Both the position numbers and the translations under genes were made by a program. DNA of 50,926 bases from Elusimicrobiota bacterium (GTDB lineage: Bacteria; Elusimicrobiota; Elusimicrobia; UBA1565; UBA9628). Each line of letters begins with the position of its first letter. Positions within the stretch are counted from its first letter, which is position 1. Shown piece after piece: positions 3,691 to 18,833 of the stretch. The notes below the pieces were generated by a model, which saw only the letters and a list, made by a program, of their open reading frames with translations, was not told the origin of the DNA and searched no databases. The stretch is from positions 1 to 50,926 of the forward strand of contig JACQJQ010000100.1 in NCBI GenBank assembly GCA_016204945.1, in the 5' to 3' direction.

Positions 3691-3978
3691 TTACTTGGCG
3701 GCTTTCGCGGGCGCGGCCTTCGCGGCGGCGGGATACACGGACGCCATCTTCTTGTCCTTGTACGCCCACTCGAACGCCACGACGCCGTTGATCTTCGCGA
3801 ACAAAGTGTCGTCCTTGCCCCGCCCGACGTTCGTACCGGGAAGAATCTTGGTGCCGCGCTGGCGCATGATCACCATGCCGGCCTTGACGACTTCTCCGCC
3901 GTAGCGCTTGACGCCGAGGCGCTGTCCATGGGAGTCCCGGCCGTTCGCGGATGAGCCCTGTGCCTTTGTTGAAGCCAT
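3691..3978 (-). CDS. rpmA: 50S ribosomal protein L27
   Basis: [44 protein letters not shown].. is a typical L27 sequence. Confidence 0.95.
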
Positions 3979-14481: not shown

Positions 14482-15287
14482 AAATGCTCCCCGTAGTCGC
14501 GGGGCGGCGAGGCCGGTATCCAGCCGACGAGGCGGCCCCCCGCGCGCGCCAGCCACGACACCGGCCCCAGCAGGGCGTAGAAGAAGAAGCAGATGAACAG
14601 GATCATCAGCGGGTAGTAGAAAATCAGGAAGCCCAGGCCGAGCAGTCCGAGTATCGCGGCCACCGACTTCGGCCGCAGAACGCCCGGCTGCTTGAACGCG
14701 GGGTAGGGGATCGTCGAAACCATCAGCAGGGAGATCGCGACGACCATGACCGGAGCCAGGCCGTAGAGCGCTGGAATCTGGTCCATCAGGAAGCGCCAGG
14801 TGCCCGCGGGCCGCCCCTCCTCGATCTTTTGATAGAGCAGGACGAAGCCGGCGAGGAAGCCCGCGCCCCCCGGGATCGGCAGGCCCGTGAAGTGGGACTT
14901 CGAACCCTGGCCGTCATGCGCCATCGCGTTGAAGCGCGCCAGGCGCAGGCCGCCGCATAGCGCGAACAAGAAGGCCATCGGATAGCCCCACGCGCCGTAG
15001 TCCTTCAGCATGAACGCGTACATCATATGCGCCGGGGCCACGCCGAAGGTGAGGAAGTCGGCCATCGAGTCGAACTCGACGCCGAAGGAGGACTCCCCGT
15101 GCACGAGGCGGGCGACGCGGCCGTCGAGCGCGTCGAAGACCATGCCGGCCATGATCGCCGTCGCCGAGGACACGAACTCCCCCCGCACGGAGGAGAGCAG
15201 CGCGTAGAAGCCGCACGCCATGTTGCCGAGCGTGAACAGGGAGGGGGCGAGGACCTGCCCGCCGCGCTTCAGAGCCTGCTTGTCCAT
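14478..15287 (-). CDS. pssA: CDP-diacylglycerol--serine O-phosphatidyltransferase
   Basis: Start MDKQALKRG. CDP-alcohol phosphatidyltransferase motif DALDGRVARLVHGESSFGVEFDSMADF. Multiple TM segments. Adjacent to psd, with an ATGA overlap with dut. Confidence 0.85.
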   Translation of the reverse strand: MDKQALKRGGQVLAPSLFTLGNMACGFYALLSSVRGEFVSSATAIMAGMVFDALDGRVARLVHGESSFGVEFDSMADFLTFGVAPAHMMYAFMLKDYGAWGYPMAFLFALCGGLRLARFNAMAHDGQGSKSHFTGLPIPGGAGFLAGFVLLYQKIEEGRPAGTWRFLMDQIPALYGLAPVMVVAISLLMVSTIPYPAFKQPGVLRPKSVAAILGLLGLGFLIFYYPLMILFICFFFYALLGPVSWLARAGGRLVGWIPASPPRDYGEHL

Positions 15288-15910
15288 TCCCCGATGGGCG
15301 TCACGCCGCCGGCGACCCGGTCGCCCGGCTTGGCCGTGCAGAGCGAGCCGGACGGAAAGTGCACGGCCGCCTGCGAGCCGAAATAGATGATGCCGTACTT
15401 CTCTCCCGCGGCGACCGCGTCGCCGGGCCTGCGCCAGCACTCGATGCGCCGCGCGATGAGGCCGGCGATCTGCTCGACGACGACGGGGCCGCGGCCCTCG
15501 GGCTCGATGGTCATGACCACGCGCGCGTTCCCGCGCGCCGCGTCCTTCATCGCGGCGGCGAACGAGCCCGCGACCGAGCTGACCTTCGTCACGCGCCCCG
15601 CCGTCGGGGCGCGCTGGATGTGGACGTCGAAGATGGAGAGGAATATCCGGCAGGTGACCGCGTCCCCGGGGCCCTCGCGGCCGACGGACAGCACGACCCC
15701 GTCGCCGGGCGAGTAGATGCGTCCGTCGCTCGGCAGGGCCCGCTCCGGATCGCGGAAGAAGTAGGCCGTGAACGCGGCGAAGCCGAAGGCGAGAAACGAC
15801 AGCAGGGCGCCGAGGACCGCGGTCGACTCTCGGCCCGTCAGCCACACGCCGCCGGCGCCGGCCGCGACGGCCGGGACCACGAACCGCCACGCCTGGGATG
15901 CGATTTTCAT
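15269..15910 (-). CDS. psd: phosphatidylserine decarboxylase proenzyme (short form)
   Basis: 213-aa ORF with N-terminal TM segments, IFLSIFDVHIQRAP and an FGSQ self-cleavage-type motif. Paired with pssA. Confidence 0.8.
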   Translation of the reverse strand: MKIASQAWRFVVPAVAAGAGGVWLTGRESTAVLGALLSFLAFGFAAFTAYFFRDPERALPSDGRIYSPGDGVVLSVGREGPGDAVTCRIFLSIFDVHIQRAPTAGRVTKVSSVAGSFAAAMKDAARGNARVVMTIEPEGRGPVVVEQIAGLIARRIECWRRPGDAVAAGEKYGIIYFGSQAAVHFPSGSLCTAKPGDRVAGGVTPIGEWTSRL

Positions 15911-16689
15911 TGCTCATCCACCAAAGATATTGGCGGCGGTGGGACTCGAACCCACATGCCCTTACGGGCGGCAGATTTTAAGTCTGCTCTGGATACCAAT
16001 TTCAGCACGCCGCCGGGTCCCTTCATTCTAGCATCTGGAGGAGTCGGCTTCACCGTCTTACTCCGGCTCCATCCGTTCGAGGCTGCAGCACAGGAAAAAG
16101 CGAGCCGTCTCTTGCGTTCAAGCGCCGGAACTTTTTCATCATAGCAAGCCCCGAGCACCTTCTGAGCCGCCATTTTTCCATACTTCAACACCCAAACGCT
16201 TTCATGTCCATGATGAATTTTACCCTCAAGTCCGATGAGCCGGGTTAAAGCCGCCTTCAGCCACTCGAGAAAAGGCGGCGAAGCGGAGAAAACGCGCAGC
16301 GACCACTGTTCGCCGCCATTGCCGGGATGAATCCAGCGCCTGATCGAGCCGTCACCGTCAACGACTCCGCGAAAGAAATCCAGGAGCATCCGATCTGGAA
16401 CGTTCAACGCTCCCATGGTCTTCGATTTCGCCGGAGTCAGACCGATGCGCGCGAGTTCTTCCCAATACGACCGACCGCAAATATTGATTCGATGAGAAAG
16501 CTGGCCCCGGCCGTTTAGGTGCTGACACACCTTGTTCGTAATGCGGCAACGATCCCTGATCATCTCAAGGAATTCATGATCTTTGGCAACCAGGATGACA
16601 TGTCGTCGGTTTCTCAACAGACAGCCATCGGTGGAGACAAGGCCGGCGAGATACCACCACTCACGAGAGCAAGAGGCGAGATTGATCAT
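15907..16689 (-). CDS. free-standing double-motif LAGLIDADG homing endonuclease. The ORF has no stop before the tRNA, so codons after about aa 225 are tRNA-Leu sequence.
   Basis: Two dodecapeptide motifs: WWYLAGLVSTDGCL (aa ~12-25) and FFRGVVDGDGSI (aa ~105-116). Both retain the acidic catalytic residue. G+C is visibly lower than in the flanks. Confidence 0.75.
   Translation of the reverse strand: MINLASCSREWWYLAGLVSTDGCLLRNRRHVILVAKDHEFLEMIRDRCRITNKVCQHLNGRGQLSHRINICGRSYWEELARIGLTPAKSKTMGALNVPDRMLLDFFRGVVDGDGSIRRWIHPGNGGEQWSLRVFSASPPFLEWLKAALTRLIGLEGKIHHGHESVWVLKYGKMAAQKVLGACYDEKVPALERKRRLAFSCAAASNGWSRSKTVKPTPPDARMKGPGGVLKLVSRADLKSAARKGMWVRVPPPPISLVDEQ
15931..16014 (-). tRNA. tRNA-Leu, anticodon UAA (class II, long variable arm); CCA not encoded
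   Basis: Hand-folded from the reverse complement: acceptor GGCGGCG/CGCCGCC; anticodon arm GCAGA-CTTAAAA-TCTGC; variable arm GCCC-GTAA-GGGC; T arm GTGGG-TTCGAGT-CCCAC; discriminator A. Confidence 0.9.
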
Positions 16690-16722
16690 ACCTTCATACG
16701 ATCGACCGGCCCAAAAAGTTCC

Positions 16723-17163
16723 CTAGAGACCTATATCCTCGTTCCAGAGGTCGGGCCTCTCGCGCGTGAAGCGAGCCATCAGCGCGACGCAGTCGGGATC
16801 CTGAAGAACGGACACCGTCACGCCGCGCGCGGCGAACAGATCCTCGGCCCCGAGAAAGTTCCTATTTTCCCCCACGACCACGCGCGGGATGCGGTACAGC
16901 AGCGCCGTCCCGGCGCACATGATGCACGGGCTCAGGGAGGACACCAAGGTCAACTCCGGCCAGTCGCGCCGGCGTCCCGCGTTCCGGAGGCAGACGACCT
17001 CGGCGTGCGCGGTCGGATCGCCCGTCTGCACGCGCAGGTTGCGCCCGCGCGCGACGATCGCCCCCCGCGCGTCGACGAGGACGGAACCGATCGGCAGACC
17101 GCCCGCGTCATAGCCCTTCTTGGCCTCGAGGTAAGCCTCGCGCACGAGCTCCCGATCGGTCAT
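16723..17163 (-). CDS. cytosine deaminase, FCY1-like (CMP/dCMP-type zinc deaminase fold)
   Basis: HAEVVCL .. SPCIMCAG zinc motifs. The C-terminal RERPDLWNEDIGL resembles the yeast FCY1 tail. Confidence 0.7.
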   Translation of the reverse strand: MTDRELVREAYLEAKKGYDAGGLPIGSVLVDARGAIVARGRNLRVQTGDPTAHAEVVCLRNAGRRRDWPELTLVSSLSPCIMCAGTALLYRIPRVVVGENRNFLGAEDLFAARGVTVSVLQDPDCVALMARFTRERPDLWNEDIGL

Positions 17164-18833
17164 TCCGGCACGCGCATCGCCGAGCTCTTCTCGATGCGCT
17201 TAAGCGCCGCGGACAGGTCGTCGTCCTCGGTCCAGGCATCGAACTCATCGAGAATTCCCGAGCTGCGAAGCACCCGCAGGGGCTGCTTCTGCAGGCCGCA
17301 GAGCAAGAGCGCGGTCCCGAGGCGCCGGCAGCGGGCCTGAAAGTCGCGCAGGGCGTGCTGGCCCGTGGCGTCCAGCACGGGAACGGCGCCCAGACGCAGG
17401 ATGAAGACCTTCGGCGGGTCTTGGATGTGGGAAAGGACCTGGCCCAACTTGTCCGCGGCGCCGAAAAAAAGCGGGCCGCTGACGTCGTAGACCTCGACGC
17501 CCACGGGCAAGGCGAGGCGCACCCGATTCGACTTTCCTCCCGCCTCCTCGTCGCCTCGGTCGGCGACCGCCGCGGCGACGGTGGTCATCTCGGCCATGCG
17601 CCGCATGAAGAGGAAGGCCGACAGGACCATCCCGATCTCCACCGCCGCCGTCAGGTCCACGAGGACCGTCAGCCCGAAGGTGGTCAGGAGCACCGCGACG
17701 TCCGAGCGCGGAGACTTCAGGAGGAAGGAGAAGGTGCGCCACTCGCTCATGTTGTAGGAGACGATGACGAGGATCGCGGCCAGCGAGCAGAGGGGAATGC
17801 GCGCCACCGCGGGGCCCGCGAAAAGGAGCACGCAGACCAGGACCACGGCATGCGCGATGCCCGCCACCGGCGTGCGGCCGCCGCTCTTGACGTTCGTGGC
17901 GGTGCGCGCGATGGCTCCGGTGACCGGAATCCCGCCGAAGAGCGGGGAGACCACGTTGGCGACGCCCTGGGCGACCAGCTCCATGCTGGAGCGGTGGCGG
18001 CCGCCGATCATCCCGTCGGCCACCACGGCCGAGAGCAAGGACTCGATGGCGGCCAGGAGGGCCACCACGGTCGCCGGACGCACCAAGGCCGCGACCGTCT
18101 TGAAATCCATCTCCGGCAGGCGCGGCGCGGGCAGGCCGCGGGGCAGGTCGCCGAAGCGCGAGCCGATGGTCTCCACGGGAAGGCCGAAGAGGGCCGCCGC
18201 CGCCGTGGCGAAGACGAGGGCCGCGAAGGGCGAGGGTATCTTCTTGGTCAGGCGCGGCAATAGGACGAGAACCGCGAGGGTCGCGGCGGAAAGCGCCATC
18301 GTCGGGCCGTCGGCGCTCGGCAAGGCATGGAGGTAGGCGCCCCATTTCTCCGCGAACTCGGGAGGAACCGCGTCCATGCGCAGGCCGAGGAGGTCCTTGA
18401 CCTGGGAGGAAAAGATGATGACCGCGATTCCGCTGGTGAAGCCCGTCGTGACGGGATAGGGGATCCACTTGATGAGGTTGCCCATCCGGCACAGGCCCAT
18501 GACGATGAGGATCACGCCGGCCATGATGGTGCAGACCGTGAGGGCGTCGCGCCCGTACTGATGGACGATGCCGTAGATGATGACCACGAAAGCCCCGGTC
18601 GGGCCGCCGATCTGGACGCGGCTGCCGCCCAAAAGCGAGATGAGGAATCCGCCGATGACCGCGGCGTAGAGTCCCTCGGCCGGGGTCACGCCCGAGGCGA
18701 TGCCGAAGGCCAAGGCGAGCGGGATGGCGACCACCCCGACGATGAGGCCGGCGATGAGATCTTTGACGAGTTGGGCCCGATCATACGACTTGAAGGTGGC
18801 GACGATCTTGGGCGTCAGGAATGCCGGAGTCAT
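17160..18833 (-). CDS. SulP family anion (sulfate/bicarbonate) permease with C-terminal STAS domain
   Basis: 557 aa, polytopic. N-terminal DLIAGLIVGVVAIPLALAFGIASGV. C-terminal STAS-like VYDVSGPLFFGAADKL .. ILRLGAVPVLDATG. Confidence 0.85.
   Translation of the reverse strand: MTPAFLTPKIVATFKSYDRAQLVKDLIAGLIVGVVAIPLALAFGIASGVTPAEGLYAAVIGGFLISLLGGSRVQIGGPTGAFVVIIYGIVHQYGRDALTVCTIMAGVILIVMGLCRMGNLIKWIPYPVTTGFTSGIAVIIFSSQVKDLLGLRMDAVPPEFAEKWGAYLHALPSADGPTMALSAATLAVLVLLPRLTKKIPSPFAALVFATAAAALFGLPVETIGSRFGDLPRGLPAPRLPEMDFKTVAALVRPATVVALLAAIESLLSAVVADGMIGGRHRSSMELVAQGVANVVSPLFGGIPVTGAIARTATNVKSGGRTPVAGIAHAVVLVCVLLFAGPAVARIPLCSLAAILVIVSYNMSEWRTFSFLLKSPRSDVAVLLTTFGLTVLVDLTAAVEIGMVLSAFLFMRRMAEMTTVAAAVADRGDEEAGGKSNRVRLALPVGVEVYDVSGPLFFGAADKLGQVLSHIQDPPKVFILRLGAVPVLDATGQHALRDFQARCRRLGTALLLCGLQKQPLRVLRSSGILDEFDAWTEDDDLSAALKRIEKSSAMRVPE

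Follow-up and report, generated by a model that had tools for sequence, protein, structure and literature searches.

Homing endonucleases, and with them the intronless and collaborative modes of homing, are known mainly from phages and organelles. The closest case of intronless homing is SegB of phage T4, a GIY-YIG enzyme encoded in the T4 tRNA gene cluster. The classical group I intron of tRNA-Leu(UAA) is located between U34 and A35; its movement between lineages is debated, and we know of no endonuclease gene linked to or carried by it. Free-standing endonucleases of phages have been described to home by two pathways, a collaborative one (trans homing) and an intronless one, the former being exemplified by F-CphI at cyanophage psbA and by T4 mobE with the nrdB intron (PMC3984707, PMC2790892, PMC6083498). 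Intronless homing by free-standing phage endonucleases has also been reviewed (PMC2988022), and LAGLIDADG genes were reported in rRNA introns of candidate-phyla bacteria (PMC8172020, PMC7143001). Here we analyze a stretch of 50,926 nucleotides (nt) from an Elusimicrobiota bacterium (contig JACQJQ010000100.1 of assembly GCA_016204945.1, in the following the window), in which an open reading frame (ORF) of LAGLIDADG type lies directly upstream of a tRNA-Leu(UAA) gene. From the comparison with its relatives we consider it probable that this is a free-standing mobile homing endonuclease cassette of a tRNA-Leu-linked family, which probably cuts tRNA-Leu genes and whose carriers owe their immunity to an intron or to a divergent tRNA. 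In the literature searched no description of a LAGLIDADG family flanking tRNA-Leu genes was found, and as far as this search shows the widespread family is undescribed.

Similar to collaborative homing, a free-standing gene adjoins a gene with a group I intron that lacks an ORF and could interrupt the target of the enzyme, and seven relatives of the window gene show exactly this layout. Since only 34 nt of 5′ exon separate the gene from the intron in these relatives, both would always be co-converted. In contrast to F-CphI and mobE, the enzyme is of the LAGLIDADG and not of the HNH or Endo VII-like type, the hosts are cellular bacteria and not phages, and the host gene is a tRNA gene. The window differs further from collaborative homing in that it has no intron, the pair of gene and intron being present in the seven relatives; for the tRNA-Leu family, a target that coincides with the intron insertion site is putative. 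With SegB the window gene shares the location in or beside tRNA genes and, as we propose, the spread through double-strand cleavage of alleles lacking the gene, whereby flanking markers are co-converted, as well as the protection of the carrier allele by sequence differences. Unlike SegB, it belongs to a LAGLIDADG family that is dedicated to the tRNAs of one amino acid in more than a dozen bacterial phyla and that travels with, or overwrites, the tRNA itself.

The best relatives of the window protein are I-Tsp061I (PDB 2dch) and I-DmoI (1b24), monomeric LAGLIDADG endonucleases encoded in archaeal rRNA introns. The two-domain architecture and the size of about 200–220 amino acids (aa) are shared with these enzymes, but the identity amounts to only ~18% and the window gene is free-standing beside a tRNA instead of residing in an rRNA intron. 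With the cyanobacterial and plastid tRNA-Leu(UAA) intron the relatives L003, L004, L104, L130, L132, L134 and L135 (L and G numbers denote loci and genomes, respectively) have the tRNA and the anticodon loop in common. In contrast to the classical intron, their splice site is found between U33 and U34, with a U·G pair in P1.

The association with tRNA-Leu extends over the entire family. From genome and metagenome contigs 112 homologue loci were gathered, of which 108 are informative and four are cut by contig ends. A tRNA-Leu gene is positioned directly 3′ of the endonuclease gene and on the same strand in 107 of the 108 informative loci, the remaining one having a tRNA-Phe. Intact tRNA-Leu(UAA) is the most frequent partner (70 loci), and the other loci contain intron-split tRNA-Leu(UAA) (7) or tRNA-Leu with the anticodons UAG (13), CAA (8), GAG (7) and CAG (2). 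The family as a whole is specialized on positions directly 5′ of tRNA-Leu genes. A first-pass annotation of the window, made from its letters alone, had proposed a free-standing or stranded homing endonuclease gene that landed next to, or was left behind at, the tRNA in an islet poorer in G and C. The free-standing gene and a compositionally foreign islet are supported by our data, whereas a mere landing beside this tRNA is not in accordance with the counts given above. Hosts were found in more than a dozen phyla, including Omnitrophota, many Patescibacteria lineages, Planctomycetota, Armatimonadota, Methylomirabilota/Rokubacteria, Acidobacteriota, Chloroflexota, Gemmatimonadota, Binatota and, with the window, Elusimicrobiota. 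The commonest layout is tRNA-Cys, endonuclease gene, tRNA-Leu(UAA), tRNA-Val, and the tRNA genes conserved on both sides would serve as portable homology arms.

The isoacceptor is also reflected in the protein tree, on which the tRNA label changes 11 times in comparison to a mean of 40.5 after shuffling. The UAA and the non-UAA half of the tree are supported with 100% each, and the protein clades track the isoacceptor even inside one phylum. Genome G325 contains two paralogues, one at tRNA-Leu(UAA) and the other at tRNA-Leu(GAG). A second, distant LAGLIDADG-like frame was observed at L163 (G323:C1:892500-895500); it is open over 441 aa, exhibits 26% identity, has no tRNA nearby and is probably a different kind of element.

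The locus in the window is composed of the following features, given in window coordinates:

16723..17163, minus strand: dea, complete gene of the cytidine/cytosine deaminase family (Pfam PF00383, 75 bits)
16690..16722, minus strand: 33-nt 5′ leader of the endonuclease gene, GGAACTTTTTGGGCCGG...AAGGT, with a GGAACTT(T/C)TT motif shared with the leaders of L104 and L135
15907..16689, minus strand: full endonuclease ORF of 260 aa, from the ORF listing
16051..16689, minus strand: conserved endonuclease core of 213 codons ending in ...GWSRSKTV, from Pfam LAGLIDADG_3 and homologues
16618..16659, minus strand: LAGLIDADG motif 1, WWYLAGLVSTDGCL, residues 11–24, with the catalytic D21 at 16627-16629
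16342..16377, minus strand: LAGLIDADG motif 2, FFRGVVDGDGSI, residues 105–116, with the catalytic D111 at 16357-16359
16015..16050, minus strand: 36-nt spacer, translated as KPTPPDARMKGP, with the promoter-like extended −10 box TGCTAGAAT and the site of the stop codon in relatives
16025-16030, minus strand: TAGAAT hexamer of the TGCTAGAAT box, 10 nt before tRNA +1
15931..16014, minus strand: divergent ("variant") tRNA-Leu(UAA) (ARAGORN; Rfam, 54 bits)
15907..15930, minus strand: shortened spacer between tRNA and psd plus the terminating TGA (15907-15909), ~65 nt in the relatives L102, L105 and G296
15269..15910, minus strand: psd, phosphatidylserine decarboxylase gene (Pfam PF02666, 118 bits), syntenic in 29 of 31 congeners

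dea, endonuclease gene, tRNA-Leu(UAA) and psd follow each other in this order, all on the minus strand. The first-pass placement of the ORF between a complete deaminase gene and a complete tRNA-Leu(UAA) on the same strand agrees with Pfam, ARAGORN and Rfam, and its reading of two motifs with both acidic residues was confirmed, with D21 and D111 present and the motifs 94 aa apart. The lower content of guanine plus cytosine (G+C) described for this segment was found as well: it is 0.53–0.56 over 15900-16800 (~0.55 for the islet) compared to 0.69 in dea and 0.72 in psd, and at third codon positions 0.60 in the endonuclease gene compared to 0.88 (dea) and 0.94 (psd). The tRNA is uninterrupted according to ARAGORN and Rfam, as stated earlier, and a search of 15000-17800 gave no match to any intron model, group I included, even at E ≤ 10. 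The gene in the window is thus neither intron-borne nor located within a decayed intron. It is free-standing, i.e. intergenic, with its own start and outside any intron or intein.

Within the genus, psd was located in 29 of 31 genomes. An empty site, which the first-pass annotation had suggested to look for in related genomes, was found in about 20 examined congener loci. There, dea is followed by 18–90 nt, tRNA-Leu(UAA) and psd, and the endonuclease gene is absent. The spacer of these alleles (L083-L101) holds a conserved TGCTA(T/C)(C/A)AT 7–9 nt before tRNA +1, the genus-type tRNA-Leu(UAA) is of the kind GGGCAGGTGGCGAAACTGG... or GGGCAGGTGGCGAAACTGGCAGACGC..., and dea of the congeners shows 85–91% aa identity to that of the window. 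In the window and in three metagenome relatives (L102, L105 and L106, 79–82% aa identity) a cassette of ~0.8–0.9 kb is found instead, in which the endonuclease gene is followed by a promoter-like spacer and then by a divergent tRNA-Leu(UAA); in the window the leader and a short 3′ spacer also belong to it. The gene starts 7–33 nt past the dea stop, and a spacer of 35–36 nt with ATGCTA(A/G)AAT precedes the tRNA.

The variant tRNA (GGCGGCGTGCTGAAATTGGTATCCAGAGC...) shares 76% identity with the genus-type tRNA, and it is the sole tRNA-Leu(UAA) isoacceptor of the window genome. In 401 genomes of the phylum, copies with ≥98% identity were detected only in G000, the window genome, and in G234 and G296. 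The latter two have no endonuclease gene; they exhibit 3′-end remnants of it, ...CGGTGACGAGCC... and ...AACGGATTGTAAGACGGGAGGGCGGGG..., before the same spacer and tRNA, and are, from these recognizable remnants, deletion derivatives. The variant tRNA was hence only found together with the gene (window, L102, L105, L106) or its remnants (G234, G296). Intact genus-type tRNA was present in none of six carrier alleles compared to 17 of 19 alleles without the gene in the same genus. Judged from these sequences, the tRNA in the window is not the original one of the host but a divergent allele that arrived with the gene, and the cassette apparently replaced the resident promoter and tRNA-Leu(UAA) between dea and psd.

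The pair L105 (with gene) and L088 (empty) illustrates this replacement. Up to the stop codon dea is 93–100% identical, with 100% over the last 60 nt, and the identity (93–100%) resumes ~70 nt 3′ of the tRNA, so that only the dea-psd spacer differs. Such a pattern would be expected if recombination within the flanking genes had replaced one allele by the other. On the left, the cassette is bounded by the dea stop codon; dea would act as left and psd as right homology arm. A tree of the flanking genes was calculated from the dea, psd, pssA and dut proteins (770 columns). Carriers are scattered on it among empty-site lineages, with L105 as sister to the empty L088 (98/94 support), and monophyly of the variant-tRNA lineages is rejected by the approximately unbiased (AU) test (p = 3e-5). 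The distribution is patchy and incongruent with the host tree, and vertical inheritance is rejected. The first-pass annotation had named a conserved, vertically inherited ORF with its own stop codon in relatives as evidence to the contrary of its view; relatives do have their own stop codon, whereas the vertical inheritance is contradicted by the AU test. An integrase-type element with a tRNA attachment site was also considered. Such a larger element was rejected because only ~0.8–0.9 kb differ from the empty alleles and no recombinase gene is present.

The suspected link to the group I intron of tRNA-Leu(UAA) was substantiated by the closest relatives. In L104 and L135 (~70% aa identity, same dea-psd context) the gene leads directly into a tRNA of the genus type, which is interrupted after U33 by a group I intron of ~200 nt (RF00028, 43–45 bits, E = 3e-10 and 5e-8). 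A terminal G and, in P1, the canonical U·G pair are recognizable in this intron. L104 and L135 group with the window clade on the protein tree (100% support). The next relatives, L003, L004, L130, L132 and L134, are located at tRNA-Leu(UAA) genes with a group I intron of 245–270 nt (RF00028, 60–77 bits) at the same 33/34 position. Each of the seven nearest outgroup lineages thus abuts an intron-split tRNA-Leu(UAA), and from its position on the tree the lineage of the window descends from intron-associated ancestors. In L130, a match to group II intron domains D1-D4 (RF02001, 57 bits) was observed at 3713-3821, ~180 nt downstream of the group I intron of tRNA-Leu.

On the question whether the closest relatives are intron-encoded, the same loci give a divided answer: they abut intron-split tRNAs, but the gene is positioned outside the intron, upstream of the 5′ exon, in all seven. 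This observation bears on the explanation of a stranded gene, which would once have resided inside a tRNA-Leu group I intron, have stayed behind or relocated upon loss of the intron, and now be immobile and decaying. The lost stop codon with a tail of 47 unconserved codons, the sister lineages that keep the intron and the two congeners that already deleted the gene are compatible with such a scenario. It is contradicted by the location of the gene in the intron-bearing relatives and by the lack of any intron-encoded member among the 112 loci. Further, strong purifying selection acts on the core, in which every motif is intact, and the cassette difference between the near-identical L105 and L088 points to recent exchange. 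We therefore regard a stranded gene as very unlikely.

Comparable allele states occur in other phyla. In the order containing L003 and G335 two genomes have both gene and intron. G354 (L165) of the same order keeps the intron, but of the gene no more than the 27 nt at its 3′ end, which encode RGWSRSKTV. One further genome has a gene fragment and no intron, and twelve others have an intron-less tRNA-Leu and no endonuclease match; nine of these twelve show tRNA-Cys 15–546 nt upstream on the locus, three show no tRNA-Cys. Between tRNA-Cys and the intron-split tRNA-Leu of L165 the gene is replaced by ~800 nt with two small unrelated ORFs. In total, remnants of deletion or decay were found in G234, G296, G354 and G347. 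A family of Omnitrophota comprises two carriers and five empty Cys-Leu-Val clusters.

Upstream of the gene in L108, L009, L056 and L061 stubs of the 5′ end of a resident tRNA-Leu were detected, which are 16–41 nt long and of a sequence type unlike the working tRNA downstream. The stub matches 17 of 20 bases in L108 (~27 nt upstream of the gene start) and 19 of 19 in L009 (~28 nt upstream). In both loci the ATG of the gene is the AUG in the D-loop of the stub (GGAATGGCA), suggesting that the gene may borrow promoter and start from the old tRNA. The stubs would place breakpoints inside the tRNA.

In the 66-nt spacer between tRNA-Cys and tRNA-Leu of L139 (G333), a second copy of the tRNA-Cys 3′ end, GGTTCGAATCCGACAGCCGCCT, was observed. 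This copy corresponds to the tRNA-Cys of G323, a relative with the endonuclease gene, and not to that of G333 itself, and looks like the scar of an earlier exchange at this site. The seven tRNA-Leu(UAA) of the Omnitrophota family of G323 (L136-L149) have nearly identical acceptor, variable and T arms, and their D-stem (GGTG, GGCG, GTCG, GCTG) and anticodon stem vary by paired compensatory changes. Within the endonuclease-linked set, more than half of the tRNAs have unusual D-stems. These changes in D-stem and anticodon stem could represent an escape from the endonuclease.

The assignment of the protein to LAGLIDADG, as given earlier, holds with 33.8 bits against a cut-off of 22.5 (Pfam PF14528 LAGLIDADG_3, E = 4e-8); no NCBIfam model exists for the family. 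A database search returned 127 homologues (best E = 1e-121), mostly 218–225 aa long, which terminate shortly past a conserved ...GWxxSKT(V/I). D21, D111, D113 and the DGDG of motif 2 are invariant in an alignment of 42 sequences. The AlphaFold2 model (predicted local distance difference test score, pLDDT, 92; predicted template modeling score, pTM, 0.89) consists of two tandem LAGLIDADG domains and supports, together with Foldseek, a tandem alpha-beta-beta-alpha-beta-beta-alpha architecture. All top Foldseek matches have the LAGLIDADG fold, the first being I-Tsp061I (E = 1e-11, template modeling (TM) scores 0.67/0.73), which is likewise the best sequence-profile match (E = 3e-15). The ratio of nonsynonymous to synonymous substitutions (dN/dS) is 0.08–0.18 over 10 pairs of endonuclease genes, i.e. 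about 0.1, indicating strong purifying selection on the protein. As judged from motifs, profile and predicted fold, the ORF encodes an intact two-domain monomeric LAGLIDADG homing endonuclease with predicted activity.

A low dN/dS is also what would be expected for a domesticated LAGLIDADG protein with a role of its own for the host at tRNA-Leu, either as a WhiA-like DNA-binding regulator of the tRNA operon or as a group I intron maturase, the gene being kept by selection on the host and not by homing. The constant position across phyla fits with this explanation, the domestication of the LAGLIDADG fold has a precedent in WhiA (PMC3984707), and the intron-bearing partners of the sister clade recall the bifunctional LAGLIDADG maturases I-AniI and bI3, both of which are among the fold matches. 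The gene is, however, absent from all 300 other genomes of the phylum (1 of 301 including the window genome) and from the 30 other same-genus genomes, searched with psd, wherever the locus could be examined, and tRNA-Leu is intact in these gene-free congeners. In contrast to WhiA, which has lost the catalytic acidic residues, carries a C-terminal helix-turn-helix (HTH) domain and is inherited near-universally and vertically, both catalytic Asp residues are invariant here and Pfam finds no HTH domain in the endonuclease protein. Patchiness against the host tree and the remnants in G234, G296, G354 and G347 also argue against a host function, and most of the partner tRNAs have no intron to mature. 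A domesticated protein is accordingly considered very unlikely.

In our preferred interpretation, the enzyme would make a double-strand break in endonuclease-free tRNA-Leu alleles, most likely in the tRNA body between D-loop and anticodon loop. Repair from the cassette allele via the flanking genes, or via flanking tRNA genes in other phyla, would then copy the gene together with an uncuttable tRNA-Leu. In the sister lineages the immunity would be provided by the group I intron at 33/34 ("collaborative homing"). In the lineage of the window it would be provided by a tRNA with divergent D-arm and anticodon stem, i.e. "intronless homing" in a cut-and-replace manner. A target in the tRNA is suggested because the tRNA is the only sequence common to all empty sites across phyla, because the protein clades are isoacceptor-specific, because the carrier alleles of the genus are either intron-split or replaced, and because tRNA 5′ stubs occur upstream of the gene in L108, L009, L056 and L061. 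As the gene is linked to tRNA alleles that are either intron-split or divergent, the enzyme would be expected to spare its own allele.

The distance between gene and tRNA has to be considered in this context. A stop codon and an intact tRNA are both present in 100 loci, and in 57 of these the stop is located 0–30 nt before tRNA +1 (median 7–8 nt), pointing to a very precise right junction. This would also be expected if the same mobile gene had a classical target across the insertion point, composed of the last upstream bases and the first ~10 bp of the tRNA. The site would in this case be lost by the insertion as such, and divergent tRNA and intron would be passengers of the co-conversion and not immunity devices. 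The swap of the whole intergenic region between L105 and L088, as expected for a conversion between flanking arms, agrees with such a junction target, as does the uninterrupted tRNA of ~93% of the carrier alleles. The upstream sequence is, however, unrelated between phyla (deaminase, tRNA-Cys, tRNA-Lys, tRNA-Thr), so that half of the target would not be conserved. The breakpoints that the 16–41 nt stubs place within the tRNA, the contrast between carriers and gene-free alleles in intact genus-type tRNA (0 of 6 versus 17 of 19) and the dependence of the protein clades on the isoacceptor even within one phylum also argue against it. Overall, a junction target appears unlikely to us.

Several points weigh against cleavage in the tRNA body with tRNA-based immunity. 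The cleavage target is derived from comparative footprints only. Family-wide, ~93% of the carrier alleles have an intron-less tRNA, and a target spanning the insertion junction would explain these carriers without a special tRNA. The replacement of the tRNA could be a passive co-conversion of a tightly linked marker, and the independent events behind it are essentially two, one for the variant-tRNA type and one for the intron type. Strong purifying selection and fixed position would also fit a host-useful role. The endonuclease genes in the genus are diverged (synonymous divergence, dS, 0.8–2.2), yet their G+C is 0.55–0.62 in host genomes of 68% G+C. The genes of the genus (window, L102, L104, L105) have not drifted to the host composition, unlike the expectation for a long-resident gene. 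Finally, no upstream tRNA stub is detectable in the window, and the 36-nt spacer as relic of the 5′ exon of the genus tRNA is not supported by shuffled local alignments (p = 0.25–0.6). In favor of a relic are the length of 35–36 nt compared to 34 nt and a GGGC(A/T/G)GG that follows the SKTV codons exactly at the tRNA +1 of L104. The part TGCTAAAAT of the spacer resembles the D-arm of the variant tRNA itself about equally well (p about 0.05), and we give the relic as a suggestion only. The 33-nt leader as stub of the old tRNA 5′ end (GGGCCGGT...) was not significant either (p = 0.47–0.93); its resemblance is instead to the leader motif common to L104 and L135.

A more far-reaching form of the preferred interpretation regards the family as a natural "cut-and-replace" drive on an essential tRNA, which would cut the tRNA-Leu body and spread from a position 0–40 nt from an uncuttable tRNA-Leu. 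This tRNA would resist cleavage either because its D-stem or anticodon stem is altered or because a group I intron interrupts it at 33/34. This generalization to the family is possible but somewhat doubtful, and we propose it tentatively.

The ORF of the window differs from those of its relatives by reading through the tRNA. The first-pass statement that the frame stays open to 15907 is correct, as is the overlap of its stop with the start of psd: the first in-frame stop, a TGA at 15907-15909, and the psd ATG at 15908-15910 overlap within the sequence ATGA (15907-15910). The number of tRNA codons has to be corrected from about 35 to 28, which are part of 47 codons past the conserved C-terminus (12 spacer, 28 tRNA, 7 tRNA-psd spacer). 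L102 terminates with TAG just past ...SKTIG, and L105 and L106 with the TAA of ...ACTAAATGCTAAAAT.... At this site the window has ...TCCAGATGCTAGAAT... with CAG, its spacer before ATGCTA is two bases shorter, and no in-frame stop is present. The 47-residue tail is not conserved, and the AlphaFold2 model spans its first 12 residues, those of lowest confidence. Due to the shortened spacer between tRNA and psd (20 nt compared to ~65 nt in relatives) the terminating TGA overlaps the psd start. The read-through is, as judged from these alignments, a derived and lineage-specific loss of the stop codon, apparently a minor accident and not a design feature, which was made easy by the very tight spacing of gene and tRNA in the family.

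Overlap with the tRNA is common elsewhere: about 40% of the family members show it, with the stop within the tRNA in 27 and read-through of the whole tRNA in six of the 100 loci. It is therefore a by-product of the tight layout and not peculiar to the window. In nine of the 100 loci the stop is the TAA or TAG anticodon itself. This double use was observed for TAA in L018, L031, L042, L048, L050 and L128 and for TAG in L044, L058 and L066. If gene and tRNA were co-transcribed, RNase P cleavage would plausibly leave the message without a stop codon, in line with the first-pass annotation.

The −10-like box of the tRNA is located inside the extended ORF. TGCTAnnAT is found 7–10 nt before tRNA +1 in both allele types, and from this conservation alone it is proposed as a −10-like box. 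A simple sigma-70 scan found no full promoter in the window. Between tRNA and psd of the empty-site alleles (L083-L101) a box TTTGGTATGAT was observed. TGCTA(T/C)(C/A)AT and TTTGGTATGAT are probably extended −10 promoters for the tRNA and psd, respectively.

For the biology of the family, these findings mean that a LAGLIDADG family has specialized on only one type of cellular gene, that of tRNA-Leu, and tracks its isoacceptors. The window contributes a genus in which empty, occupied, intron-protected and decayed alleles are all present, the wholesale replacement of a tRNA and a phylogenetic bridge to the intron-bearing tRNA-Leu(UAA). With seven lineages in which the gene lies 34 nt from the intron, collaborative homing of the tRNA-Leu intron becomes directly testable. 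The family is also a predicted source of compact (~215 aa) monomeric meganucleases, and short known targets that vary by compensatory change would, if our interpretation is true, be useful for studying the evolution of specificity. If the family is a cut-and-replace drive, free-standing LAGLIDADG genes would be the missing mobility engine by which tRNA-Leu(UAA) group I introns, themselves ORF-less, pass between bacteria in collaborative homing. With an essential tRNA gene as battleground, foreign alleles would overwrite residents, as with the only tRNA-Leu(UAA) of the window genome, and the family would drive rapid compensatory evolution and wholesale replacement of tRNA-Leu across many phyla.

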